Source: Phycisphaerales bacterium
GTDB lineage: Bacteria; Planctomycetota; Phycisphaerae; Phycisphaerales; UBA1924
Assembly: GCA_035654175.1 (NCBI GenBank)
Contig: DASRXL010000059.1
Location: 1-59,692, forward strand
Direction: 5' to 3'
Length of the DNA stretch: 59,692 nt
Positions 6,640-28,371 of this stretch are shown piece after piece; positions within the stretch are counted from its first letter, which is position 1; every line of letters begins with the position of its first letter. The position numbers and the translations under genes are program-made. Under the pieces are notes generated by a model. That model saw nothing but the letters and a program-made list of their open reading frames with translations, made no database searches and was not told where the DNA came from.

Positions 6640-7811
6640 GCCGCCTCATCTCTCGGTGCGCGCGCGACCATCGGCAGGCGCACCGTGAAGCGCGAGCCGC
6701 GCCCCGGCTCGGACCGCACCTCGATCGCGCCGCCGTGCCCGGCCACGATGCCCTGCACCACCGAGAGGCCGAGCCCCGTGCCCCGGCCGACCTCCTTGGT
6801 GGTGAAGAACGGATCGAACGCGTGGCGAGCGACCTCCTCGGGCATGCCGCACCCGGTGTCCTCGACCCCGAGCGCGACCTCCTCCGGCCCGCGCTCGGTC
6901 GAGACGGTGATCACCCCCCCACCGGCGCTCGCGGCGTGCATGGCGTTCACCACGAGATTGACGAGCACCTGCCGGACCTGCACCGGGTCGGCCTCGATCT
7001 CCGGCAGGTCCGGCGCCAGCCGCTGGACGAACCGGATGCCGGGCTGCTCGCACCCCGCCTCCATCAGGAAGACCACCTCCTCCACGAGCGCGTTGAGAGA
7101 GAGCCGCTGGCGGCTCGCCGGCCCCTGGTGCGCGAAGGCCAGCAGCTTGCGGATCACCTCGCGCCCGTGCAGCGACGCGCGCACGATCTTGTCCAGGTCG
7201 GCCCGCGCCTCCTCGGGCAGGCGCTCGCCGCGCAGCGCCAGCTGCGCGAAGCCGAGGATGTTGCCCAGCGGCTCGTTCAGCTCGTGCGCGACGCCCGCGG
7301 CGAGCTGGCCGATGGTCGCGAGCCGGTCGGCGTGTCTGAGCTGCGCCTCCGCCGCGGCGCGCCGCTCCTCCGCCTCGGCGCGCTCCACGAACACCGCCAC
7401 TTGGCGCGCGACCGCGTCGAGCAGCGAGCGCTCCTCCGGGAGGAACAGACCCTCGTCGGCGCCGGCGCGCCCGTAGGCGACCCGCACCTCGCCGCGCTTG
7501 CGCCCGGCCACCACAATGTCGCTCGAGAGCGCGTTCGCCGCCGCCGCCGGGAACCCGGGCGTGCGCTCCTCGACACCGTCGATGCCCAGGGCGGCGTACG
7601 CCTCGTCGGGGAATCTCCACGCCCCGGGCAGGATCGAGACGATCCGCCGAAAGCATCCGGACAGGTCGGCGCGGTGCTCGACGAAGGCGAGCGTGACCTC
7701 ATAGAGGCATGTCAGCTCTTTGACCCGCTCGCGCAGCCGGTCGTGCGAGTCGCTCGCGGGCACAGCATCGCCGCGGCCGCCGCCGGCGCTCTGAGATCTT
7801 CGACGTGTCAT
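6621..7811 (-). CDS. Sensor histidine kinase
   Basis: H-box LAAGVAHELNEPL and HATPase_c motifs (NLVVNAMHA, DTGCGM, GTGLGLS). Overlaps the downstream NtrC-type gene by 19 nt. Confidence 0.85.
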
Positions 7812-10202: not shown

Positions 10203-10279
10203 CCCGCCTGTGTCCGATGCCGTGCTCCGGCTGAAGTCGGTGACCCCGAGGACCGATAGCCGCGGGGAGGACTCCGCGC

Positions 10280-11128
10280 ATGTCGAGCATCGAGCGCCCA
10301 ACCCATCGATCCGACACCCTGCTCCATCGCATCGAGGAGCTGGAAGCTCAACTGTCCCGCGCCAGGGCCGAGTTCGAGGCCTCCAGCCGTCTCAGCACGC
10401 TCGGTCTGCTCACAGGCGCCATCGCGCACGAATTCAGCAATATCCTCACGCCGGTGCTCAGCTACGCCCGCGCCGCCCTGGAGCGGCCCGACGACCGCGA
10501 GCTCGCCTCAAAGGCCCTTGATCGTGCGGCGAAGGGCGTCGAGCAGGCCGCCCGCGTGGCGAATTCCGTGCTCCGGCTCGCCGGGAGCGGCCTCGATGCC
10601 GCGGACGAGCCCCTGAGCTGCGATCCCGCCGAGGCGCTCGCGGGAGCCCTGGAGTGCATGGGTCGGCGGCCCCAGGAGGAAGGGGTGGAATTGCGCGTGG
10701 TGCTCCATCCTGGTCTTCGGCTTCGGATCCGGCGAACCGACCTTGAGCACGTGCTGCTCAACCTGCTCCTCAACGCCGTCCGCGCCTTGAAGCCTGGTGG
10801 GGGGGTGCTCGAACTCACGTGCCGGCCGCTCGTCGGCTCGGCTGGTTCCACGTGGAACACGGTCGAAGAGCCCGGTGCGGAACTCACCGTGCGCGATACG
10901 GGCCCCGGGATCAGCCGCGAGCTTCTGGACCAGCTCTTCGAGCCGCTCCTGACACGCACGACGCGCGTGCCCAACCGCAACCGGGGGCATGGCCTAGGCC
11001 TGGTCATCTGCCGGCGCTTGATCGAGGCCGCCGGCGGTACCATCTCCGTCGAGTCCGAGGTCGGGCGCGGAGCCGTGTTCCGCATCCGGCTCGGCGCGGA
11101 CGCCGAGGCTTCCCAGCGCGCCGCGTGA
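10280..11128 (+). CDS. Cytoplasmic histidine kinase (HisKA + HATPase_c, no obvious sensor or TM domain)
   Basis: Coiled-coil N-terminus, H-box LLTGAIAHEFSNILTPV, N-box LLNLLLNAVRA, and G-boxes DTGPGI and GHGLGL. Confidence 0.85.
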   Translation: MSSIERPTHRSDTLLHRIEELEAQLSRARAEFEASSRLSTLGLLTGAIAHEFSNILTPVLSYARAALERPDDRELASKALDRAAKGVEQAARVANSVLRLAGSGLDAADEPLSCDPAEALAGALECMGRRPQEEGVELRVVLHPGLRLRIRRTDLEHVLLNLLLNAVRALKPGGGVLELTCRPLVGSAGSTWNTVEEPGAELTVRDTGPGISRELLDQLFEPLLTRTTRVPNRNRGHGLGLVICRRLIEAAGGTISVESEVGRGAVFRIRLGADAEASQRAA

Positions 11129-18622: not shown

Positions 18623-18850
18623 TCAGTCCTGGTGCCCCCGCTTGCTCGGGATCGCGTTGACCCCGATGCCGATCCCCGCCAGAACCACCAGGAGCAGCAT
18701 GTTCCGGACCGTCGGCGCGGCCCCGGTCTTGGTCGGGGCCGGGGCCTTCGGCCGCTCCTCCTGAGCCGCGCCCACACCGGGGAACGCGGCCAGGCTGGCG
18801 AGGGCCAGGACCAGGGGGACGAGCAGGCGGCGGGGGGCGGGGTGGTTCAT
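18623..18850 (-). CDS. Small secreted/membrane protein
   Basis: Internal start MNHPAPRRLLVPLVLALASLAAFPGVGAAQ (signal-like) and a second hydrophobic helix MLLLVVLAGIGIGV. It forms the 3' part of the 254-aa track ORF. Confidence 0.5.
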   Translation of the reverse strand: MNHPAPRRLLVPLVLALASLAAFPGVGAAQEERPKAPAPTKTGAAPTVRNMLLLVVLAGIGIGVNAIPSKRGHQD

Positions 18851-19330
18851 CGTGGGGGATGCTACGGGATGGGGGGCGGGGGGTAAAGCCGGGAGCGTGG
18901 CCAGGGCCTCCCGACCTGGAGCGTCCGTGCAGCGTCCGCCACCGGTTCCATCGCTGGCCCGTGCGCCGAGGTCCACCGGGCCCCAGCGCGGGCTCCGCAC
19001 CCGCGGCGCGCCGTAGCCATGCACACCCACCGCCCGCGGGGCGTACCAGCGGCCCCTGCGCTCGAGAGCTTCCTCGAAGACCCCGTCGGCCGGCAGCGCA
19101 TCATGCCAGTCCATGAAGGCGAAGACGGCCCTGAACTCTGGCCCGAAGAGCCCCTGCCACGCGAGCATCGAACTGACGTCGTCGGCCGCGACCCAGGATT
19201 CGAGCCGGCGGGTGCCCGCCCCGCCGCGCCCAGCGGGCACCGGCCGGCCCTTGATCTCGACCAGCAGATTCAGGCCGGAGCCGTAGACGACGAAGTCGAA
19301 GAATTTGGGAGTCTGTTCGAGTGGCAGTGA
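18851..19330 (-). pseudogene. 5'-truncated copy of the HYExAFE-type PD-(D/E)XK-like gene
   Basis: Aligns with the 27754..28350 protein from FDFVVYGSGLNLLVEIKG through RSPRWGPVDL. It lacks about the first 50 codons, including the HYExAFE motif, and has no stop codon of its own. Confidence 0.6.
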
Positions 19331-19628
19331 CGGTGGGAGGCTCGTAAACCTGAGGCTCGTCGGTCCGCGACGGCCGGCTGCCCACACACCTCCGGAGGCC
19401 CGTCACGGGAGCCCTTGGTGCGACCGCAAAGTGGACAAATCCGCCACGCATTTGTGCTGAGCGGCGCATCTTTGTGGGCATCACCGCACCCCGATCGACC
19501 TTCTGGCCCGCCTGTTGCATTCAGTGCCAACCCCCTGTACACTTCCCTTCCCAGTGGGCGTCACCCGCCTCGGCAGAGTCCGAGAAAGGGGTTTTGCCCT
19601 TGGACACGGTGGGTGCAGCGGGGGGGGG

Positions 19629-21797
19629 ATGCAGAGTTCGCCATTCAACATCAAGACAGTCAAGGACCCTGTTCATGGGATGATCGAACTTCACCCAATC
19701 GAGCAGCTGATCATCGACCGCCCAGACTTTCAACGATTGCGATTTGTCTCCCAGCAGGGACTGGCGCACTACACGTACCCCTCGGACCAACACTCGCGCG
19801 CACCCCACTCGTTCGGCGCGATGCATCTTGCCGGGCGAATGCTCAAGCGAGCACTTGAGAATGCAAGGCTGCCGGTTCTGGAGCGATTCCTCTGGGACGC
19901 CAGAGACCTGATCGCCACCATCGCTCATGCTCACTCGCACAAGGAAGCGAGAGTAATCCATGGCGCGGCGGAATTGATCCACAATGCGGTCGGCTTCAAT
20001 CATCGCCCGTACGCGAGCAATGACCGACTAGGACCTGGGTGGGTACATCCTAAAGGGAAATGGACCCATTTCAATTCCGACCCAGGAACTCCGTTCGATT
20101 ATCAGATGGCTTCCTATGTGATCGCCGTGCTCTGGCAAGCCGTACGGGTTGCATCACTTATCCATGACATCGGACACCTGCCCTACTCCCATACCTTCGA
20201 ACATGCAATTGACGACTTGTGGTTGCGTGCGCGAAGGAAACAGGTGGACGAAGACCCGCCGCGATCATTCGCAGCAGCATTCAACGAGCTGCATACTCGA
20301 TTTGACACGGTCTTTCGCAACCTTTTAAAGCAACTGGACATGCCGCGCCGCGTTGATGATCCGGGCGATTCGCCGCAAGTACAGGCCAAGCCGCGAATAC
20401 CACCTCATGAACAGATTGGAATTCTACTCTGTGACGTGTTTCCGTTCGAATCAGAGCTCCGCACGCCCTCTCAACAGGCGCTTTGGCAAGTAACGACCAC
20501 TATCGGACGCCTCGTATTTGGCTGTAACCCCGAGCTCTACGAGGGAGCCTCGGCCGAGAACTCTCCTCTTCAAACTGGGCGATTCGCAGTGATACAGGCG
20601 CTCCATTCAATCATGTCAGGCGAGCTGGACGCTGATCGGTTGGACTACAGCGTGCGAGACACTGCTACCGCTGCTGCCGGATTCGACTCCATAGATATCG
20701 AGGAGATCGTGGAGAACCTGCAGCTCGTGTCCCTTCCGACCGGAGGCTCGACAGAGGCAAGCAACCCCTATGCGATTGCGGTACGCGCCAAGGCGATTCC
20801 GCAGGTTGAGACTTTTTTCACGCAACGATTCATGGCGTACAGGGCAATCGTCGGGCACCATAATGTAGCGCGCTTTGATGCCATACTTGGCGCTGCGATC
20901 AAAGCCCTGATTGAGTCGTCACAAGATCAAGGCTCTGTCCTTTACCCGCTCTTGCGTGGGAGAGGCTTCGGGGGTTTTTACGACAATGCCTACAAATTCG
21001 GGCCATTTAATCCGGACACATATAGGCGATTCGATGACTGTTGGCTCAGATCTGTGTGTCAGGAGGCTCTTGAGTGTCTTTCCGCGCGAACCGGCGAGCC
21101 GTTGAAACCGCACGATCTGCAGACGCATCTTTTACTAGAGACATTGCTGGAGCGCAAGACCTCTAATCTCCTGTCGTTGTTCAAGAACGAAGGACATCGT
21201 TTAGCGTGGCGAACAGACCTCGTGGATCGGTTAGGGCGTCATGAGTTGTTCGCCAGCGAGGAGTTGGCAAGGGAGCTTGTGGACCGCGTATTTGCCACCG
21301 ACTGGGACGACATTCCCCTACTGATGGATGATGACGGAGGGCTGTTCGATCCCGTCGAGTTTGTGGAAATGAAGCTGCTAGTCGGTGCACGGGAGGTAAC
21401 CGCGAGTAAGGATGCGGAGCGCTCTGTGGTCTTGCCCCTCCTGTCTTTCTGTCGGCCTAGGCTCCTCGACAAACGGCCGATGGATGTGGTGCTGGACATG
21501 GCAGAGACGCTCCCCATCCGACCTGGCCCGGCGCTCGCCGGGCGCGTCGCAATCGCCTGCTCCGCCAGCTCTGACTTGAGCGATGTTCGGGACTTGCCCG
21601 ATGCCTCGCTTACGCTGCGAGGCTTGGCTAGACTTCTGGCTACCTTTCCTCGGCTCAACCTGGCCTTTGTGGGTCGGGCCGTGCGCGATGCCGATAACCC
21701 GAACCGATTGCGCTCGGTTGCCCTGGACGCGGTCGGAGATCTGTGCGTGGCCATGAGGAATCATGAACTCCGAACCGAACGGAGTGCAGTGGCATGA
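19629..21797 (+). CDS. HD-domain phosphohydrolase (SAMHD1/dGTPase-like dNTP triphosphohydrolase family) with long unassigned C-terminal region
   Basis: DPVHGMIELHPIEQLIIDRPDFQRLRFVSQQG, HSRAPHSFG, LIHDIGHLPYSH and DADRLDYSVRD give the H..HD..D metal-binding pattern. Start re-called at MQSSPFN. G+C is visibly lower than in the flanks. Confidence 0.9.
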   Translation: MQSSPFNIKTVKDPVHGMIELHPIEQLIIDRPDFQRLRFVSQQGLAHYTYPSDQHSRAPHSFGAMHLAGRMLKRALENARLPVLERFLWDARDLIATIAHAHSHKEARVIHGAAELIHNAVGFNHRPYASNDRLGPGWVHPKGKWTHFNSDPGTPFDYQMASYVIAVLWQAVRVASLIHDIGHLPYSHTFEHAIDDLWLRARRKQVDEDPPRSFAAAFNELHTRFDTVFRNLLKQLDMPRRVDDPGDSPQVQAKPRIPPHEQIGILLCDVFPFESELRTPSQQALWQVTTTIGRLVFGCNPELYEGASAENSPLQTGRFAVIQALHSIMSGELDADRLDYSVRDTATAAAGFDSIDIEEIVENLQLVSLPTGGSTEASNPYAIAVRAKAIPQVETFFTQRFMAYRAIVGHHNVARFDAILGAAIKALIESSQDQGSVLYPLLRGRGFGGFYDNAYKFGPFNPDTYRRFDDCWLRSVCQEALECLSARTGEPLKPHDLQTHLLLETLLERKTSNLLSLFKNEGHRLAWRTDLVDRLGRHELFASEELARELVDRVFATDWDDIPLLMDDDGGLFDPVEFVEMKLLVGAREVTASKDAERSVVLPLLSFCRPRLLDKRPMDVVLDMAETLPIRPGPALAGRVAIACSASSDLSDVRDLPDASLTLRGLARLLATFPRLNLAFVGRAVRDADNPNRLRSVALDAVGDLCVAMRNHELRTERSAVA

Positions 21798-22081
21798 CAC
21801 CAACAGCCGAATCAAAAGGTGTGCTCACTCTCCGGGACAGCGAGCTTGCTCGTGCTCTTCGTTTGATCAGAGAGCAGGAGGGATTGACTGCGCATGAGCT
21901 GGCAGTTCGCGCTATGACGAAGGGTCGTTGCCTCCAGCTCCGCCAGGGTTCCTCGGAGCAAGAGTACCTTGCGAATCTCAAGCGAGCTGGCTACGTTCGT
22001 AGTGACGATGGCATGCGGTACTTCTTAACCGCGCAGGGGCAATCACTGCTTGAGCGTCTGGAATCCCAGGCTGATCGCTGA
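21794..22081 (+). CDS. Small winged-helix-like protein coupled to the HD gene
   Basis: Its ATG overlaps the HD gene stop (ATGA at 21794-21797). LTAHELAVRAM...EYLANLKRAGYVRSDDGMRYFLTAQG resembles an HTH plus wing. The family is not recognised. Confidence 0.6.
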   Translation: MTPTAESKGVLTLRDSELARALRLIREQEGLTAHELAVRAMTKGRCLQLRQGSSEQEYLANLKRAGYVRSDDGMRYFLTAQGQSLLERLESQADR

Positions 22082-22869
22082 ACTGAGTCAGTCCAGAAGA
22101 GAGCTGCCGAAGGTTAGGCAGATAGCCCAAGCGCGCTAGTCGCTCCGCATGCCTCGGCTCTAGCCGGTAACTGTTGCGGACCGCTCGCGCGAGGTGCGGA
22201 AGATCTGCGCAAACCGCGTCAGCCCTGAGCCGTTCGGCTCCGAGCATCGGATTCTTCGTGGCAAGCTCCAGCACCTGGATGGGCACACGGAGTGCCGGCT
22301 CACTGCCCTCCTCCGGGTCCGCCCAGTACGCGAGTGCGCCGTTGTAGTCGGGCCGCATCTGGGCGCTGCCGGTCGTGACGCCGACCGCCACCACGCCAGG
22401 AGCACAGCGCCGCCTGCTACCGCGGTTGCGCCACAGGTACACCGTCTGTCCAGGAGCGAACTTCGAGGCGCACCTGGTCGCCGGCCACAGGATGTCCCGG
22501 GTCGTGACGAGGTAGCTGTCAAGGTCGAACCTGTCGGGGCTGCGCTGGAGCAGCCAGGCTAACGGTGGGGTAGTAGACGCAGCGGGCGTCGCCCGTTCCG
22601 GATGTCTGGCTCGCACCTCGACGCCGAGCGCCTTGAGGAACCCGGCCGCACGGTCCGGCCGTAGCCCGCCGGGCACCTCGTGCGGCATCGGCTCCCGCCC
22701 CGTCACCCGCCGGGGCGGCCACCCCGACCAACGCCTTGGAGTCGTAGATGTTGCCGTTGAGCACGGCGACGTACTTGCTCGGCACGCGGACCGCCGGGCG
22801 CTCGCCGGCGTCCCACTGAGCGGCGGCTTCCAGAACATGGTCGAGGGTGATGCCGTCGGGGATGGACAT
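21978..22869 (-). pseudogene. Frameshifted McrA-like N-terminal head domain + EVE (PUA-like) domain protein
   Basis: Frame A gives MSIPDGITLDHVLEAAAQWD...KYVAVLNGNIYDSKALVGVAA. It continues in another frame as ...VPGGLRPDRAAGFLKALGVEV, then EVE-like DRFDLDSYL...GQTVYLWRNRG...GVVAVGVTTG. The shift lies near 22690-22725, at C/G runs. Confidence 0.6.
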
Positions 22870-22964
22870 AGCGCGATAGCGTGCAGGGGCTGGCTCACAG
22901 CATACATGAGGTCCGCGCTTCTGGCGGCGAGCCCCTTCAGATACACTGATGTCGAAGCGCCGCC

Positions 22965-23690
22965 ATGCATATCCGTAACTCCATCTCGCGGCTCTATCGC
23001 CAGTGGCGCGAGGCGGGAAGAATCCACCGACGGCGCATGGTCCTGCTGTTGTCGGTGATGGCACCCAGGACCATCGGGGGCGGATTGCTCCACCTCATGG
23101 ATGGTGCTCCCTCCTGGGTCGCGTCGCTGCTGTCGGTGGGATGGATTGTCCCGGTGTGGCTTCTCATCTCCCTGTCGGAGCGGACCATCCGCAGATCCGT
23201 CAACGAGCGGGATAGCGCAGTGTGCTGGCAATGCTGGTATCCGCTTGGGGGCGCGAACAGTCGCTGCTGTCCAGAGTGCGGGTCGCCTTTCGAGGCGTCA
23301 GAGCTTCGGGAGCGCTGGCGGCTCGTTGTCTGGCTCGGGGACAGGACTGCGCACCGCGTCCTGCGGGCGCTCATGATGGTCGGCATCGCTGTTCTGTCGT
23401 TGTGGCTCCTGGCGGCGGTGTTCCTCGGGCTCGGCCCGAATCTCGGCCTTCCGTTCGGGTACTACGGGAAGCTCAGCCGCGTCGTCTCCCGGCTTGAGTC
23501 GATCCCCGGGGTAGAGGTCGTGGACGTTGCCACGAACCATGACGTGACTCTTGAGGACTTCCTCGTCGTCGTGTCCATCCACGGCACGCGCCGTGCATCC
23601 ATTGAGTTCCCCGATGCGGACGCGCCGGTGCTGCTGCGCATCGTGCACGACTGGAAGGCCAGAGAGGTTTTTGGGGATGTCGCGGAATAG
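22965..23690 (+). CDS. Membrane protein with zinc-ribbon-like CxxC..CxxC motif
   Basis: CWQCWYPLGGANSRCCPECG sits between hydrophobic helices (WVASLLSVGWIVPVWLLISL, MMVGIAVLSLWLLAAVFLGL). The start is uncertain. Confidence 0.5.
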   Translation: MHIRNSISRLYRQWREAGRIHRRRMVLLLSVMAPRTIGGGLLHLMDGAPSWVASLLSVGWIVPVWLLISLSERTIRRSVNERDSAVCWQCWYPLGGANSRCCPECGSPFEASELRERWRLVVWLGDRTAHRVLRALMMVGIAVLSLWLLAAVFLGLGPNLGLPFGYYGKLSRVVSRLESIPGVEVVDVATNHDVTLEDFLVVVSIHGTRRASIEFPDADAPVLLRIVHDWKAREVFGDVAE

Positions 23691-23849
23691 CGAGTGCGCG
23701 CGTATGCATCGGCGTGCACTCCCCTGCGCATGATGCTGCACTCGTCGTCAGTGCGCGCTCGCAGCCGAGCACACACGGATGATGATTTGCGCTCGTTGTT
23801 GCGTTAGAATGTGAGCGCACGGAGCGATTCGAGCCACGGAGGGCCCACC

Positions 23850-24333
23850 ATGCACATCGCGTTCAGGCCCATCGACGACATCAAGCCCTACGACAAGAAC
23901 CCCCGCGTCAACGACGACGCGGTGGACTCGGTTGCTCGCTCGCTCCAGGAGTTTGGGTGGAGGCAGCCGGTCGTCGTGGATGGGACAGGGCCATCATCAT
24001 CGGCCACACGCGGTGGAAAGCGGCCCGCAAGCTCGGGATGGAGCAGGTGCCGGTGCACGTTACCGAAGGCCTCAGTCCAGAGCAGGCCCGCGCCTACCGC
24101 ATCGCCGACAACCAGGCGGCGAGCATCGCGGAGTGGACTACGAGTTGCTGCCGATCGAGATGGCCCAGCTGAAGGATCTGGGCCTCGACCCCTTCATCCA
24201 CAGCTTCGACGACGAGGAGCTGACCAAGCTCACGGCGTCAGCCGGCTGCCCAGCACCGCTCCACACGCTCCTGGCTCGACGGCGCTCTGGTCCTGCTCTG
24301 GGAGGCGGAGCCCGACCGGCTCTCACGGGCTAG
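23850..24333 (+). pseudogene. ParB-like N-terminal (nuclease/partition) domain gene with two frameshifts and a lost C-terminal part
   Basis: IKPYDKNPRVNDDAVDSVARSLQEFGWRQPVVVD in one frame. RAIIIGHTRWKAARKLGMEQVPVHV...ARAYRIADNQAASIAEW in a second. DYELLPIEMAQLKDLGLDPF in a third. Shifts lie near 23982 and 24135, at G runs. An RBS GGAGGG precedes the ATG. Confidence 0.6.
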
Positions 24334-24425
24334 GCCACCTTCCGCGACGGCCCGCCCGTCGGAACCGCGGGCAAGCACGCTGTTCCGAAGTCGTGGGAGG
24401 GAAGGGCGCGCAGGCGCAGTGGGCC

Positions 24426-25151
24426 TTAGGGAGACCCGGGTACCCGGCTGCGAGACTCCGGCGGGTAGAGCACGATGCTGCTTCGCCCGGTGGACTCCGA
24501 CGGCCTCACACGTGCGAACTCCGTTCCCGCGGACAACCCGATCGCCATCCCGTGGCACAGCGCGCACAAGCCTGTCTCAAGGATGGCCAGGAGCACGGGC
24601 CGGGAGCTGAAGGCCGGTACAACCGCGCCGCTCACAACCGCCACGCTCTGACGCTCCCACCTCGTGGGCGACCCGCAGTAAGGGCAGTCGCACTCGAGAC
24701 CGCCAAAGCCGCCGAGCAATTCGTACGCCCGCCAGAGGGATCGCTCGGGGAGCTCATCCAGTGCATGCGCCATTTCGCAGCTCTCCGCCCCCGTGGTGCC
24801 TGCATACCCGAGATGGCTTCGACCGTCGGCGGGTGCATGAACGGGCGTGGCTCCCGCCTGCGCACCGTTCGCACCCCGTCTCGCCGTCTCGCCGGGAGCC
24901 ATCCCGATCGCGTGCCGGCGCGCCAGCTCGCGGAGCGCCGCCCTCAGGGCCGCCTCGTAGCCGCCGCCAACCTTCGCGTAGAGACGCTTCGCCGTGCGGG
25001 CACTCAGTGCTCCCCTGCACTGTCCGCAGAGCGGTTGGCCCGCCGCCTTCTCGCCGGCGCACGCCGGACACACGGCGGAATCGCGCGACTCGATCAGGCT
25101 TAGGCGGTACTCCTGCTCCGGCTCACCTATGGATCGGGGAAGCTCCGGCAT
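24426..25151 (-). CDS. Cys-rich hypothetical protein (two zinc-ribbon-like motifs)
   Basis: Start re-called at MPELPRS; its ATG overlaps the upstream TAA (TAATG). CPACAGEKAAGQPLCGQC and CDCPYCGS motifs. No family recognised. Confidence 0.5.
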   Translation of the reverse strand: MPELPRSIGEPEQEYRLSLIESRDSAVCPACAGEKAAGQPLCGQCRGALSARTAKRLYAKVGGGYEAALRAALRELARRHAIGMAPGETARRGANGAQAGATPVHAPADGRSHLGYAGTTGAESCEMAHALDELPERSLWRAYELLGGFGGLECDCPYCGSPTRWERQSVAVVSGAVVPAFSSRPVLLAILETGLCALCHGMAIGLSAGTEFARVRPSESTGRSSIVLYPPESRSRVPGSP

Positions 25152-26959
25152 TAAGCAGCCTCCTTCTGCGCGCCGGCGGCACCCTCCTCTGCTGCGCAAA
25201 GACGGTTGAGCGTCCGGAGCAACTGCGCGAACGTGACCGGCAGCGGGAGCCCGACAGACTGCCGATCCCGGGCGATCTCCCCCGGAAGCGCGAGCTCACC
25301 GGTCGGGGAGATGACCAGAAGGGGCAGCCGGGCTCCGCCGGCCGCCTCCTCCAGCTCGCGCAACCTGCTCGCCGCGGGCACGGACTCTGCCGGCGAGGCA
25401 AGGTGCACAACCGACACGTTGGGCGCGGCGTTCGCATCGCGGAGCCGGTCGAGCGCAACCCCGACCGCGTCGACCCCCGGTCTGAGCGAGGCGAACAGCG
25501 GGTTGATCGGAGTGATGAGGCGGCCGCGGTGCCGCTCGCGCACCGGCGTCCACGGCTGCGAATGGCCCACCATGAGCAGGGAGAACTTGACGTCGTCGGT
25601 CTCCTTCTCGGCGCGTTCAAGCGCACCCTGGAGGTCCTCGCCGCGGAGGTTCAGCAGCTGCGCGAGGGCTTCGGTGGGGTAGAGCGTGTCGTTCCCGCTC
25701 GAGCCGATCATGGCTGCGTGCGCCAGCCTGTTCGAGAGGGCGAGTATGGCGGACTCCGCCAGTTGTTTCTTGGCGTGCTCACGCAGGTTCGAGGCCGAGA
25801 GGTGGTGCGAGGCCAGCGGCACGACCAGGTCCTTCGGAAAGCTCCACATGAGCAGGAGCCGGTCCATGATGTCGGCGTGGTTCAAGAGCAGCAGCCGGGC
25901 CTCGACCAGCTCGAGCGGCAGGTCCAGCCGCTCCGCAACCTCAAGCACGTGCGCGTACTCGGGCGCGAAGTGCTCCGCCAACACCATGCGTCCCAGGTCA
26001 TGGAGGAGCCCGAGCGTGAAGGCGCGGTCGGGGTCGAGCTCGCCCGTCAGGCGGCCGATCTCGGCCGCGAGCAGCCCGCACGCGATTGAGTGCTCCCAAA
26101 AATGCATGAAGTTGAACCTGTTCGAGATCATCACGCCCGAGAAGGAGTCGATCAGCTCCAGGTTGAGGACGAGGTCCCGGATGTTCTTGGTCCCGATCCG
26201 GAGCACAGCGTCGCGCACGCTTGTCACAGGGTCGCCCCGCTCGAACAGGGTCGAGTTGGCCAGCCGCAGGACCTTGAGCGCGACGCTCTGGTCGCGGGCG
26301 ATCACCTTGGCGATCGCGTCGAGCGAGGTCGCGGGATTCGCCGTGAGCCTGGTGATCTGCGTCACGGTGGGCGACATGGCTTTGACCTCGGAGATCTCCC
26401 GGATCCGCTCCAGGATCGCGGAGCGCGTGACCACCGGGCGAAGTTCTCGAAGCGACGCGGCCCCATTGTTCACCGCATGCCCCGTGGCGGGACCGCGCGC
26501 CTCGGGCTTCTCCTCGTGTCCCGGAGGCGGTGCCGCCGCCTGTGCGCTCCGGACGGCCGGGCGTCCCATCCCCTTTTCGCGCCTTCGGCATGCGCTGCCG
26601 GCGAACGCGGCCGCCCAGCGGCTCGGATCCAGCGACCGCTTGAGCAGGAATCCGTCCGCGCCCGCCTGCACCGCCGCGAGCACTTCCTCGCGGCCGGCAC
26701 TCTCCGTGAGCACGATCCCCGAGATCTTGCGGCCGTCGGCGCGGAGCTGCGACACCAGTTGAACCACCGAGAGCCCACCCTCATCCGGCAGCTTCCACTC
26801 GGTGACGACCATGTCGATCTTGCCGGAGGCGATGCGTTCCGCCGCTTCCGCGGCCGTGCCCGCCTCGACGGTGCTCTGCCCCGATATACCGAGCAGCGTC
26901 ACGAGCAAGCGACGATACGATTCGTTGGGCTCCACAACGAGGACGTTCAACGGAACCAC
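25151..26959 (-). CDS. Response-regulator receiver + HDOD domain signalling protein
   Basis: REC (LVVEPN...DMVVTEWKLPD...GFLLKR). HDOD (MSPTVTQITRL...LKVLRLANSTLF...HSIACGLLA...GLLHDLGR). A C-terminal region of about 200 aa is unassigned. Confidence 0.85.
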   Translation of the reverse strand: MVPLNVLVVEPNESYRRLLVTLLGISGQSTVEAGTAAEAAERIASGKIDMVVTEWKLPDEGGLSVVQLVSQLRADGRKISGIVLTESAGREEVLAAVQAGADGFLLKRSLDPSRWAAAFAGSACRRREKGMGRPAVRSAQAAAPPPGHEEKPEARGPATGHAVNNGAASLRELRPVVTRSAILERIREISEVKAMSPTVTQITRLTANPATSLDAIAKVIARDQSVALKVLRLANSTLFERGDPVTSVRDAVLRIGTKNIRDLVLNLELIDSFSGVMISNRFNFMHFWEHSIACGLLAAEIGRLTGELDPDRAFTLGLLHDLGRMVLAEHFAPEYAHVLEVAERLDLPLELVEARLLLLNHADIMDRLLLMWSFPKDLVVPLASHHLSASNLREHAKKQLAESAILALSNRLAHAAMIGSSGNDTLYPTEALAQLLNLRGEDLQGALERAEKETDDVKFSLLMVGHSQPWTPVRERHRGRLITPINPLFASLRPGVDAVGVALDRLRDANAAPNVSVVHLASPAESVPAASRLRELEEAAGGARLPLLVISPTGELALPGEIARDRQSVGLPLPVTFAQLLRTLNRLCAAEEGAAGAQKEAA

Positions 26960-27241
26960 TCCTTTCCAAGAGGAAGGCGTTCAACAGCAAGCGGCCGAAC
27001 GTGTGGTCTCGATGGGGCGAACTGCCCTGGACACGATCCATCGGGGATTCGTCCATCTTCACCCCGGCAGTTGAATGAATCCGTCAGATGGTCGTTGCGC
27101 GCGCACAAGGCGCGCAAGCGTTGTGGACGACGCCACAACATTGTGGTACATGTGCCCGATCCGGCGCATCACTGCGTAGTTCGCCAGCCCGCGGATCCCT
27201 GGGAGGTGGAGCCTGCCGCGAAACGATGGCGCCGCCGTGGA

Positions 27242-27523
27242 TCAGGTGTCGGCGAGGCTGGCATCTGCGAGGCACGGGCCAACTTCGAGAGCCCCGGACA
27301 GATCGAGCGGCGCTCCCGCTATCACGGGGCCAAGGGCCACTGGGTTCTCGATGCGTGGATTGAGACGTGGCTCGCGCCCTGGTTCGCGGATTGGTGACTC
27401 GACGACCTTCGCCGTCCGCGGTGCCCGCTTCGTGCCATGCACGGCGATCCTGACGAGTACGGCACCCTCCTGCACCCGCGGCGGCTCGCCGGGCCCGCGG
27501 CCGCACCGCATTGTCGTGTTCAA
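27242..27523 (-). CDS. Possible small ORF, function unknown
   Basis: Third-position G+C is higher in this frame than in the overlapping plus-strand frame. No recognisable motifs; TTG or ATG start. Confidence 0.3.
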   Translation of the reverse strand: MNTTMRCGRGPGEPPRVQEGAVLVRIAVHGTKRAPRTAKVVESPIREPGREPRLNPRIENPVALGPVIAGAPLDLSGALEVGPCLADASLADT

Positions 27524-27753
27524 GGACTGCGGAAAGGTTCGGCATCGGCAAGCACAAGTGTGTCGAGGGACATTCTTCCTAGCTGTCGCACTTGCGCGGC
27601 AAACCGGCCGCGATCCAGATGACGATGTGGCGGATCACACCCGCAGCCTACAGGCGACCCCTTGAAGGCGATAGGGGTCTGTTGGAGTCTGGAGTGTCTC
27701 GCACATCGCCCAGCATGGCGCACGAGCAGACTTGCCAGCCCATGTGCGTCAAC

Positions 27754-28350
27754 TCACCCCCCAATAGGCTCCATCGCCGGCTCCGCAAGGCCTACGCCAC
27801 TCGCCGCCAGCGAGCCCCGGAACGGCTGGCTCAGGCGCGCGTACACCGCTCCCGGCAGGTCCACCGTCCCCCAGCGCGGGCTCCGCACCCGCATCGCGGC
27901 CGCGTACTCGCGCACGCCGACGGCCCGCAGCGCGTACCACCTGCCCCGGTGCTCGACGATCTCCTCGAAGAGCCCGTCGGCCGGCAGCGCGTCGTGCCAG
28001 TACATGAAGAGGAAGACCGCCCGGAACTCCGGCCCGAAGAGCCCCTCCCAGGCCAGCATCGAGCTCACGTCGTCGGCCGCGACCCACGACTCCAGCCGGC
28101 GCGCGCTCGCCCCGTCCCGGCGCACCGGCACCCGCCGGCCCTTGATCTCCACCAGCAGGTTGAGCCCGGCGCCGTAGACGACGAAGTCGAAGGATTTCAG
28201 GCTGGCCTCCGGGCGCGCCTCGCCCCACGCGGGCTCGGGGAGGCGCGGCAGGAGCGCCTTCTTGGCCTCGTTCACCGCGACGTACGGGATGCGCTCGGCG
28301 CGCAGGAAGGCCTCGAACGCCTGTTCATAGTGGTGGCGGCGCTGGGCCAT
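27754..28350 (-). CDS. HYExAFE-type protein with PD-(D/E)XK-like motif (intact copy)
   Basis: Begins MAQRRHHYEQAFEAFLRAERIPY. FDFVVYGAGLNLLVEIKGR fits a D...ExK nuclease-fold core. Paralogous to the remnant at 18851..19330. Confidence 0.8.
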   Translation of the reverse strand: MAQRRHHYEQAFEAFLRAERIPYVAVNEAKKALLPRLPEPAWGEARPEASLKSFDFVVYGAGLNLLVEIKGRRVPVRRDGASARRLESWVAADDVSSMLAWEGLFGPEFRAVFLFMYWHDALPADGLFEEIVEHRGRWYALRAVGVREYAAAMRVRSPRWGTVDLPGAVYARLSQPFRGSLAASGVGLAEPAMEPIGG

Positions 28351-28371
28351 GCCCCCATCCTAACACAATCC

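Follow-up and report, generated by a model that had tools for sequence, protein, structure and literature searches.

A SAMHD1-like HD phosphohydrolase and its winged-helix partner form a horizontally acquired gene pair of possible defence function in a Phycisphaerales bacterium

Contig DASRXL010000059.1 of a Phycisphaerales bacterium (assembly GCA_035654175.1), a stretch of 59,692 nucleotides that we refer to as the window, carries two overlapping genes. An initial annotation, made from the letters alone, had read them as a candidate defence pair, coupled and of the dGTPase type. We found that the larger gene encodes an unusually long relative of the HD phosphohydrolases SAMHD1 and EF1143, and that a predicted winged-helix protein, encoded by the smaller gene, accompanies this long enzyme across distant phyla. 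The most likely function that we infer for the pair, with about an even chance of being right, is that of a regulated nucleotide-depletion defence module. Both open reading frames (ORFs) have the lengths first given for them, 722 and 95 amino acids:

19629..21797, plus strand: SAMHD1/EF1143-type HD phosphohydrolase gene, long form, 722 amino acids counted from the ATG
21794..22081, plus strand: small partner gene, 95 amino acids, predicted PadR/MarR-like winged helix-turn-helix with a C-terminal helix

The junction of the two genes reads GTG GCA TGA CAC. Here the ATGA at 21794-21797 holds both the TGA of the HD gene and the ATG of the partner, so the overlap that had been described is present in the sequence.

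SAMHD1 and the EF1143 protein of Enterococcus faecalis are allosterically activated, tetrameric deoxynucleoside triphosphate (dNTP) triphosphohydrolases of the HD superfamily. To place the window enzyme among them, we aligned it with SAMHD1 and with 19 relatives of its own. The complete H..HD..D signature claimed for it is borne out: HSRAPHSFG, LIHDIGHLPYSH and DADRLDYSVRD are all present, and their key residues are invariant in the 19 relatives. The invariant positions are H179, D180, G182, H183, P185, S187, H188, E191, H260 and E261, together with D334, D336, R337, L338, D339, Y340, R343 and D344. H60, R57 and Q42 are nearly invariant, H60 being missing only from one N-terminally truncated sequence. 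The invariant residues correspond to H206, D207, H210, H215, H233, E234, D309, D311, Y315 and D319 of SAMHD1. The metal-binding tetrad H60, H179, D180 and D336 is equivalent to SAMHD1 H167, H206, D207 and D311, and the conserved R57, Q42, H183, H188, H260-E261, Y340 and D344 are equivalent to R164, Q149, H210, H215, H233-E234, Y315 and D319, with the HE dyad and the Y/D equivalences assigned by motif pattern. From what is known of SAMHD1, we take H60, H179, D180 and D336 to be the metal ligands, H183, H188, H260 and E261 to be catalytic residues, and R57 and Q42 to be substrate contacts. The similarity extends to the N terminus, where K9, D30, Q35 and R38 align with SAMHD1 K116, D137, Q142 and R145; the aspartate and the glutamine are kept in the family and the arginine varies (R/H). 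In SAMHD1, D137, Q142 and R145 are residues of the guanine-specific allosteric site, and the window enzyme appears to keep part of this guanine-nucleotide signature.

Profile searches and structure prediction, run on both proteins, returned a SAMHD1/EF1143 fold for the large one and a winged-helix fold for the small one. In a phmmer search of Protein Data Bank (PDB) chains, residues 7-76 of the enzyme matched human SAMHD1 115-182 with an E-value of about 2e-17, and the helix of the HD motif (171-192) aligned with SAMHD1 198-219; the next matches were EF1143 (2o6i), 2hek and 2q14. An AlphaFold2 (AF2) model built from the 19-sequence alignment had a mean predicted local distance difference test score (pLDDT) of 77 and a predicted template modelling score (pTM) of 0.85. 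When this model was compared with the PDB using Foldseek, the top matches were exclusively of EF1143/SAMHD1 type (E of about 1e-11, template modelling (TM) score 0.63-0.68 relative to the target, about 715 columns). Thus the window enzyme is like SAMHD1 and EF1143 in its N-terminal segment, HD motif, metal ligands, catalytic residues, predicted whole-chain fold and an alignable HD-associated lobe. Sequence and predicted structure together firmly place the large protein in the SAMHD1/EF1143 clade, with its metal-binding and catalytic residues intact.

We also examined why the enzyme is so large. It is 170-280 amino acids longer than bacterial SAMHD1/EF1143-type enzymes, from which it differs by two insertions and a family-specific C terminus of about 185 amino acids. 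In an hhalign comparison with ordinary HD+HD_assoc_2 enzymes of 400-450 amino acids, residues 7-535 paired with positions 1-331 of 435 (probability 100). Within this alignment, residues ~383-535 paired with amino acids 242-334 of the ordinary enzyme P0018, which are its Pfam HD_assoc_2 part. The resulting layout, in residues of the enzyme, is as follows:

1-84: N-terminal allosteric-site-like segment and first histidine
~85-162: insertion 1
H179 D180: HD motif
~197-258: insertion 2
H260 E261: HE dyad
334-344: DxD..DY..RD
~346-535: HD-associated lobe
~536-722: family-specific alpha/beta C-terminal region

A C-terminal stretch of about 250 amino acids had been called unassignable. Because the profile alignment reaches residue 535, most of that stretch is the ordinary HD-associated lobe (~346-535), too diverged for Pfam to recognize, and only ~536-722 is specific to the family. 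These last ~185 residues lie outside the profile alignment, and AF2 predicts a mixed alpha/beta fold with a long terminal helix there. Likewise, the internal insertion that had been noted exists, although relative to ordinary homologues there are two (~85-162 and ~197-258) rather than one.

The small ORF had been described as helix-turn-helix plus wing. It proved to be a conserved gene at other loci, with a predicted winged-helix fold. Pfam models gave sub-threshold matches (HTH_45, E 4e-4, 20.8 bits against a cut-off of 25.5; MarR_2, 14.3 against 27), and the Pfam PadR model did not match the 95-residue protein. A model from 12 homologues (AF2, pLDDT 72) predicted helices at 15-28, 33-42 and 55-65, strands at 68-71 and 75-78 and a final helix at 80-94, with a long loop between helices 2 and 3. 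Foldseek ranked PadR-like, MarR-family and Sso10a proteins at the top (probability 1.0, TM 0.55-0.66), at E-values of 5e-3 to 5e-2 that are weak because the domain is so small. JGI names one homologue a 'PadR family transcriptional regulator'. The model therefore supports a winged-helix reading of the partner at the level of fold, not of family membership. The predicted topology, three helices, a beta-hairpin and a C-terminal helix, resembles that of PadR subfamily-2/MarR-type proteins such as LmrR and BCE3449. The partner differs from these in its sub-threshold Pfam scores, in the long helix 2-3 loop, in the acidic character of more than half of the family (22 of 42 members; median isoelectric point 6.2) and in the position of its gene downstream of, and translationally coupled to, the enzyme gene. 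No nucleotidyltransferase domain was found in the partner with Pfam, NCBIfam or PADLOC. We also observed a Met-Cys start (MCxx...) in 15 of 42 partners from distant phyla, absent from the window's own partner; proteins with this start are found at L009, L010, L012, L015, L017, L022, L024, L025, L028, L033, L038, L040-L043 and L099 (8922-9137). Beside a metal-dependent HD enzyme, such an N-terminal cysteine might bind metal or mark the protein for processing.

To learn whether the pair exists elsewhere, we searched 1.84 billion cluster representatives exhaustively with a profile of the long enzyme. The long HD family comprises more than 150 clusters at 50% identity, from many phyla, whose members are related over their full length and measure 560-900 amino acids. 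The best 150 matches, mostly end to end, were 429-897 amino acids long (median about 665, three shorter than 500) and scored at least 383 bits (E ≤ 1e-109). Hence the pair is not a one-off. A first word-index search had pointed to a rare family of about 20 members, an estimate that the exhaustive search overturned. A scan of one genome per species with a 10-sequence alignment yielded 80 loci, from Phycisphaerae, Bacteroidota, Alpha- and Gammaproteobacteria, Bacillota, Acidobacteriota, Aminicenantes, Anaerolineales, Cloacimonadales and other groups. On the family profile, long enzymes scored at least 345 bits and ordinary ones less than 200.

We then counted partners in 36 long-family loci, all non-redundant and complete on the 3' side. 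A partner homologue of 70-120 amino acids lies downstream in 28 of them (iterated hidden Markov model, E<0.01; start at -65 to +194 nucleotides from the HD stop). Four more have a borderline-scoring ORF of 80-112 amino acids at the same position, and in one the partner is fused to the C terminus of the enzyme. By contrast, no partner was found beside ordinary HD genes of 440-490 amino acids (0 of about 40 loci), so pairing sets the long family apart from its ordinary homologues. Several enzymes of intermediate score (200-290 bits) also have one. The small ORF lies directly downstream in the first long relatives inspected (L001, L002, L003, L005, L007, where it is uncalled, L009, L010 and L011), and the 112-residue partner of L001 shares the ATGA overlap seen in the window. 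A search with the partner profile returned a dozen proteins, and the two weak matches that we checked (E 2.6e-3 and 6.6) each lay directly 3' of an HD gene of 659-662 codons. In Nitrosophilus labii, the pair is carried by the plasmid pHRV44, beside an N6 DNA methylase and TniQ/TniB.

Pairwise identities among enzymes and among partners were correlated (Pearson r 0.75; in a Mantel test none of 2000 permutations was as high), indicating that the two genes diversified together as a unit. Together, these data establish the winged-helix protein as the obligate, co-diversifying partner of the enzyme, though three of the 36 loci lack it. Physical coupling of the two proteins is suggested by two lines of evidence, the translational overlap and the natural fusion. 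In the fused protein, P0016 of Clostridium sporogenes (L008 6001-8247, 748 amino acids), residues 671-748 share 62% identity with P0090, a free-standing partner (E 3e-30). The fusion looks like the loss of a stop codon followed by in-frame read-through of the short spacer, with loss of the partner's Met-Cys start.

Base composition and comparison with related genomes support the conclusion that the pair is a horizontally acquired, co-inherited unit. Both genes have a G+C content of 56.8%, against 72% in the left flank and 70% in the right; the reported drop is real, although its estimate of 50-55% was slightly low. G+C at third codon positions (GC3) is 63% in the HD gene and 56% in the partner, compared with 85-94% in flanking genes. 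The equal G+C of the two genes argues for their joint arrival. To find the corresponding site without the pair, we searched for related loci; the neighbouring HYExAFE-family gene as query found nothing, and the PSP1-domain gene retrieved 80 metagenome loci (PSP1 52-71% identical). From all 80, the HD gene and its partner were absent, as were the EVE-like, zinc-ribbon and response-regulator-HDOD genes that follow them in the window. Both the HYExAFE gene and the alpha/beta-hydrolase gene were present in 20 of the loci, and in 17 of these the two flanking genes lie 196-305 bp apart, compared with 8,985 bp in the window. The close flanks in relatives and the absence of the pair from them place it in a lineage-specific insert.

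We considered whether the pair is a non-functional remnant of a degraded island. The ParB-like and EVE-like neighbours do appear frameshifted, and on sister contigs the ENA calls keep a minus-strand ORF of 330 amino acids and drop the 95-residue gene, which a Logan call retains. However, neither ORF of the pair is interrupted, each aligns with its family over the full length, no catalytic residue has been lost, and the 722-residue protein is unchanged on four independent assemblies. Decay is therefore a very improbable account of the pair. The start of the HD gene is called differently in different resources. JGI/ENA give 722 amino acids for the identical protein in other assemblies (P0233), and the NCBI product has 705, starting at M18 (window 19680), which loses the KxxxDPxHG motif aligned to SAMHD1 116-124. 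Because the conserved N terminus of the family, K-x-I/V-R/K-D-P-x-H-G, begins at residue 9, and because of the JGI/ENA call, we consider the ATG at 19629 the better start. A longer form could begin at a TTG at 19515. The stretch immediately before the ATG, GGGGGGGGGA, is G-rich.

We next examined what surrounds the pair in relatives. At loci annotated with Pfam, mobile-element genes (the transposases rve, DDE and IS91, TrwC relaxase and TnsE_C), toxin-antitoxin genes (ParE, RelE and YoeB) and defence-linked genes (MmeI/Eco57I-type restriction-modification, ImmA, Multi_ubiq+ThiF, SIR2, AbiH and a Beta_protein/P4-cII pair) were found beside it. In a survey of 142 neighbouring ORFs from 26 genome loci, the commonest Pfam families were phage integrase (4), serine recombinase (4), type IV secretion system coupling protein (2) and relaxase (2). 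PADLOC identified a Pycsar cyclase with a TIR effector (PycC+PycTIR), GajB, AbiD, ShosA, Lit (2) and methyltransferases among the same ORFs. This pattern is what would be expected of an accessory gene riding mobile elements and islands, often in the company of defence genes. Directly next to the pair we noted Beta_protein and P4-cII (L012 5731-7624), Multi_ubiq and ThiF (L005 11566-14114) and AbiH (L015 6487-7401); the first of these resembles the gop-beta-cII system of P4 satellites. At L010, a second HD-domain protein (6695-7231; 546 amino acids, cut off by the end of the locus) is encoded on the strand of the pair, 4.5 kb farther downstream.

These surroundings bear on two other explanations. 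The first is an addiction module resembling a toxin-antitoxin system, in which the dNTPase would be a growth-arresting toxin and the winged helix an antitoxin and autorepressor, and which would stabilize mobile elements and have no dedicated anti-phage role. A small partner gene adjoining or overlapping that of the enzyme, and a DNA-binding-type fold of the kind found in many antitoxins, would fit a type II toxin-antitoxin module, as would the co-diversification of the two genes and the plasmids, integrative elements and other toxin-antitoxin pairs that often carry or neighbour them. The gene order is enzyme first, partner second. The fused version is hard to square with a labile antitoxin, and three loci have the enzyme without any partner. 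Fused toxin-antitoxin defence proteins, such as CapRel-SJ46, nevertheless exist. We consider a pure addiction module unlikely, though more credible than the other alternatives discussed here; it also overlaps the defence reading, because many toxin-antitoxin systems are defence systems.

The second explanation is that the enzyme is an accessory regulator of the dNTP pool, acting in stress or the cell cycle and taking no part in conflict with phages or plasmids, with the winged helix as a plain transcription factor. Such a role would agree with the usual function of PadR/MarR-type proteins, with the name that JGI gave to one partner and with the purely metabolic neighbourhoods of some pairs; some bacterial dNTPases are reported to serve physiological functions (PMC11071499). 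It agrees poorly with the patchy spread of the pair over distant phyla, a base composition far from that of the host, the absence of the pair from the 80 related loci and its location beside integrases, relaxases, transposases and defence genes. Moreover, the partner gene is downstream and translationally coupled or fused, not upstream or divergent, and many partners are acidic. We regard a housekeeping role of this kind as quite unlikely.

Considering that HD dNTPases defend bacteria through nucleotide depletion (10.1101/2021.04.26.441389; PMC13519002) and that the dNTPase of the Clover system requires a dedicated restraining partner (PMC12265719), we propose that the pair works as follows. 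Judging from its conserved residues, the enzyme would hydrolyse dNTPs to deoxynucleosides and triphosphate. The partner would bind directly to the enzyme, with the family-specific insertions or the C-terminal region as the probable docking site, and would either restrain it or serve as the sensor by which it is released; in addition, the partner may regulate its own operon. Because the partner carries no enzymatic motif, any restraint must be exerted by direct binding or by transcriptional control. Phage infection or the entry of a mobile element would lift the restraint, the dNTP pool would collapse and replication of the invader's DNA would stall. More specifically, and only tentatively, we suggest a distinct two-gene immune system whose partner would be more than a transcription factor, namely a regulatory subunit docked on the insertions or the C terminus, silencing a potentially lethal dNTPase and freeing it when an invader is sensed.

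Several observations weigh against the proposal of a partner-controlled dNTPase for defence. The three partnerless loci (L016, L030 and L050) indicate that the enzyme can persist alone. P0016 is the only enzyme-partner fusion among about 170 family proteins and could reflect one lost stop codon or a faulty assembly; being a single case, the fusion is given modest weight. The acidic partners are compatible with a protein-binding subunit at least as much as with a DNA-binding repressor, which is not proof of either. Housekeeping genes (aconitase, IMPDH and SAICAR synthase) also occur as neighbours in relatives. In the window itself, the adjacent genes can be identified as defence genes only weakly by sequence; in this respect the initial reading of the neighbours went too far. 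Its HD enzyme, winged-helix partner and coupled unit stand. The regions where a partner is missing are 10241-10610 at L016, 10103-10700 at L030 and the corresponding part of L050. At L030, the low-G+C gene for the enzyme directly borders core genes of high G+C, which looks like loss of the partner at the edge of an island.

Other points against the proposal concern the chemistry of the enzyme. The position of SAMHD1 L150, a residue that helps to exclude ribonucleotides, is occupied by Q43 in the window enzyme and by Q or N across the family. The substrate may therefore not be dNTPs alone, and the specificity for the sugar is uncertain. Pfam HD (PF01966) reaches 14.9 of the 22 bits required, and the PADLOC dGTPase model PDLC02374 matches only residues 171-197, 27 amino acids (E 0.002, 15.6 bits). 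Further library searches gave a similar picture. HD_assoc_2 (PF19276) did not match the enzyme even at E ≤ 1. NCBIfam dGTPase models scored about 15-18.5 bits against cut-offs of 152-439 (TIGR01353, dGTP_triPase, 18.5 against 152), and the Pfam, NCBIfam and PADLOC matches are all confined to about 27 residues around the HD motif. Two relatives exceed the Pfam HD cut-off (P0009, 31.8 bits; P0126, 29.7 bits). Across Pfam, NCBIfam, PADLOC and PHROGs, both proteins of the pair had only sub-threshold or N-terminal-only matches; therefore the module fits no named family.

We therefore considered whether the enzyme acts on another substrate, such as ribonucleoside triphosphates, a signalling or modified nucleotide or a nucleic acid, in which case the role of the module would rest on that chemistry. 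In addition to the L150 replacement and the position of the family outside all curated dNTPase models, its two large insertions and family-specific C-terminal region would allow for this. SAMHD1 itself binds single-stranded nucleic acids, and the fold matches of the enzyme include PDB entries 8d94 and 8tdv. Yet the residues with which SAMHD1 binds metal and hydrolyses triphosphates are conserved, including R57 (=R164), Q42 (=Q149), the HE dyad and DxD..DY..RD, and the characterized members of the clade met in our searches are all dNTPases (PMC3190883). A substrate other than dNTPs thus seems to us unlikely.

Comparison with known systems indicates which parts of the module are familiar. Sp-dGTPase, its relatives and the octameric Vdg are likewise HD triphosphohydrolases encoded near restriction-modification and defence genes, and they empty the dNTP pool (10.1101/2021.04.26.441389; PMC13519002), the mechanism that we propose here. 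The dGTPases of Tal et al. and Vdg are Dgt-type enzymes, either encoded by single genes or fused to SAM, NLR, TIR, SIR2 or death domains (PMC13519002), whereas the window enzyme belongs to the SAMHD1/EF1143 branch and has a separate partner gene; a winged-helix partner is not in the domain-survey list of that study. The closest logic to the proposed role of the partner is that of Clover, which also has two genes, a dNTPase effector (CloA) and an accessory protein that restrains it until infection (PMC12265719). In Clover, however, CloB is a Pol-beta-type nucleotidyltransferase that makes the inhibitory p3diT; here the partner is a winged helix of 70-120 amino acids. Even from SAMHD1 and EF1143, the window enzyme differs in falling below the Pfam thresholds and in its replacement of L150 by Q/N.

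The claim that this architecture was unrecognized agrees with our searches. We found no model covering the clade or the partner in Pfam, NCBIfam or PADLOC-DB v2, RefSeq labels the family proteins as hypothetical, and our literature searches for winged-helix or helix-turn-helix partners of SAMHD1-like or HD enzymes in defence returned no description. The use of HD dNTPases against invaders was thus already known, and what had not been covered is the long clade with its winged-helix partner.

In the window, the pair lies at the left end of a lineage-specific block:

19388..28371, no strand: lineage-specific block of about 9 kb holding the pair, between the HYExAFE-family and alpha/beta-hydrolase genes
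18623-19387, minus strand: HYExAFE-family gene (NF038001, E 7e-27)
19388..19628, plus strand: intergenic stretch of 241 bp, presumed promoter/operator region from its position upstream of the HD gene only
21978..22580, minus strand: EVE-like ORF, convergent with the pair (sub-threshold EVE match at E=0.043, covering profile positions 3-136 of 145)
23850..24172, plus strand: ParB_N-like fragments in two frames, both below the Pfam threshold
25151-26959: response-regulator-HDOD gene of near-host G+C
from 28372, minus strand: alpha/beta-hydrolase gene, right border of the block

The block also holds a zinc-ribbon membrane ORF. To its left lie signal peptidase, PSP1-domain and HYExAFE-family genes, and this synteny is kept in dozens of related metagenome contigs, so the HYExAFE gene is part of the core genome and lies outside the island. 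The response-regulator-HDOD gene of near-host G+C suggests that the block is probably composite rather than a single acquisition. In the two closest relatives the same junction is occupied by metabolic rather than defence genes, which makes it a variable site and not demonstrably a defence hotspot. We found no tRNA or integrase in the window and no convincing direct or inverted repeats flanking the island. No sigma-70-like promoter matched in 19388-19628, and promoter or terminator signals in the window did not exceed the shuffled expectation.

The 3' ends of the partner and of the convergent EVE-like ORF overlap by 104 nucleotides (21978-22081). The neighbours had been described as an EVE reader with an McrA head and a ParB-like gene, both decayed. 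The EVE match spans 134 of 145 profile positions and stays below threshold, and the ORF is probably decayed, because its upstream part reads out of frame. Pfam and PDB sequence searches gave no support for an McrA head. Similarity to ParB_N is likewise sub-threshold and split between two frames (E=6e-4 at 23957-24172; E=9e-3 at 23850-23990), which suggests a frameshifted ParB-like or ParB-methylase-like gene. An ORF of 430 amino acids at 23811-25103 matched no family and is probably spurious.

Humans, through SAMHD1, and bacteria both use HD dNTPases to deplete nucleotides as an immune strategy, and for very few such enzymes is it known how they are silenced until infection. Unlike the Dgt-type defensive dGTPases, the long family aligns directly to SAMHD1, and current annotation and defence-finder models miss it. 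Should a defence role not be confirmed, the module would still be a well-defined one, a mobile SAMHD1-like enzyme with an obligate partner. If defence and control by the partner prove true, the pair would add a new named system to defence catalogues, explain many pairs of 'hypothetical proteins' in genomes and on plasmids, and provide a protein-based counterpart to the nucleotide-based restraint of Clover. Among the bacterial relatives of SAMHD1 that have a dedicated control partner it would then be the closest, and the switching of SAMHD1-type enzymes could be studied in a tractable bacterial model.

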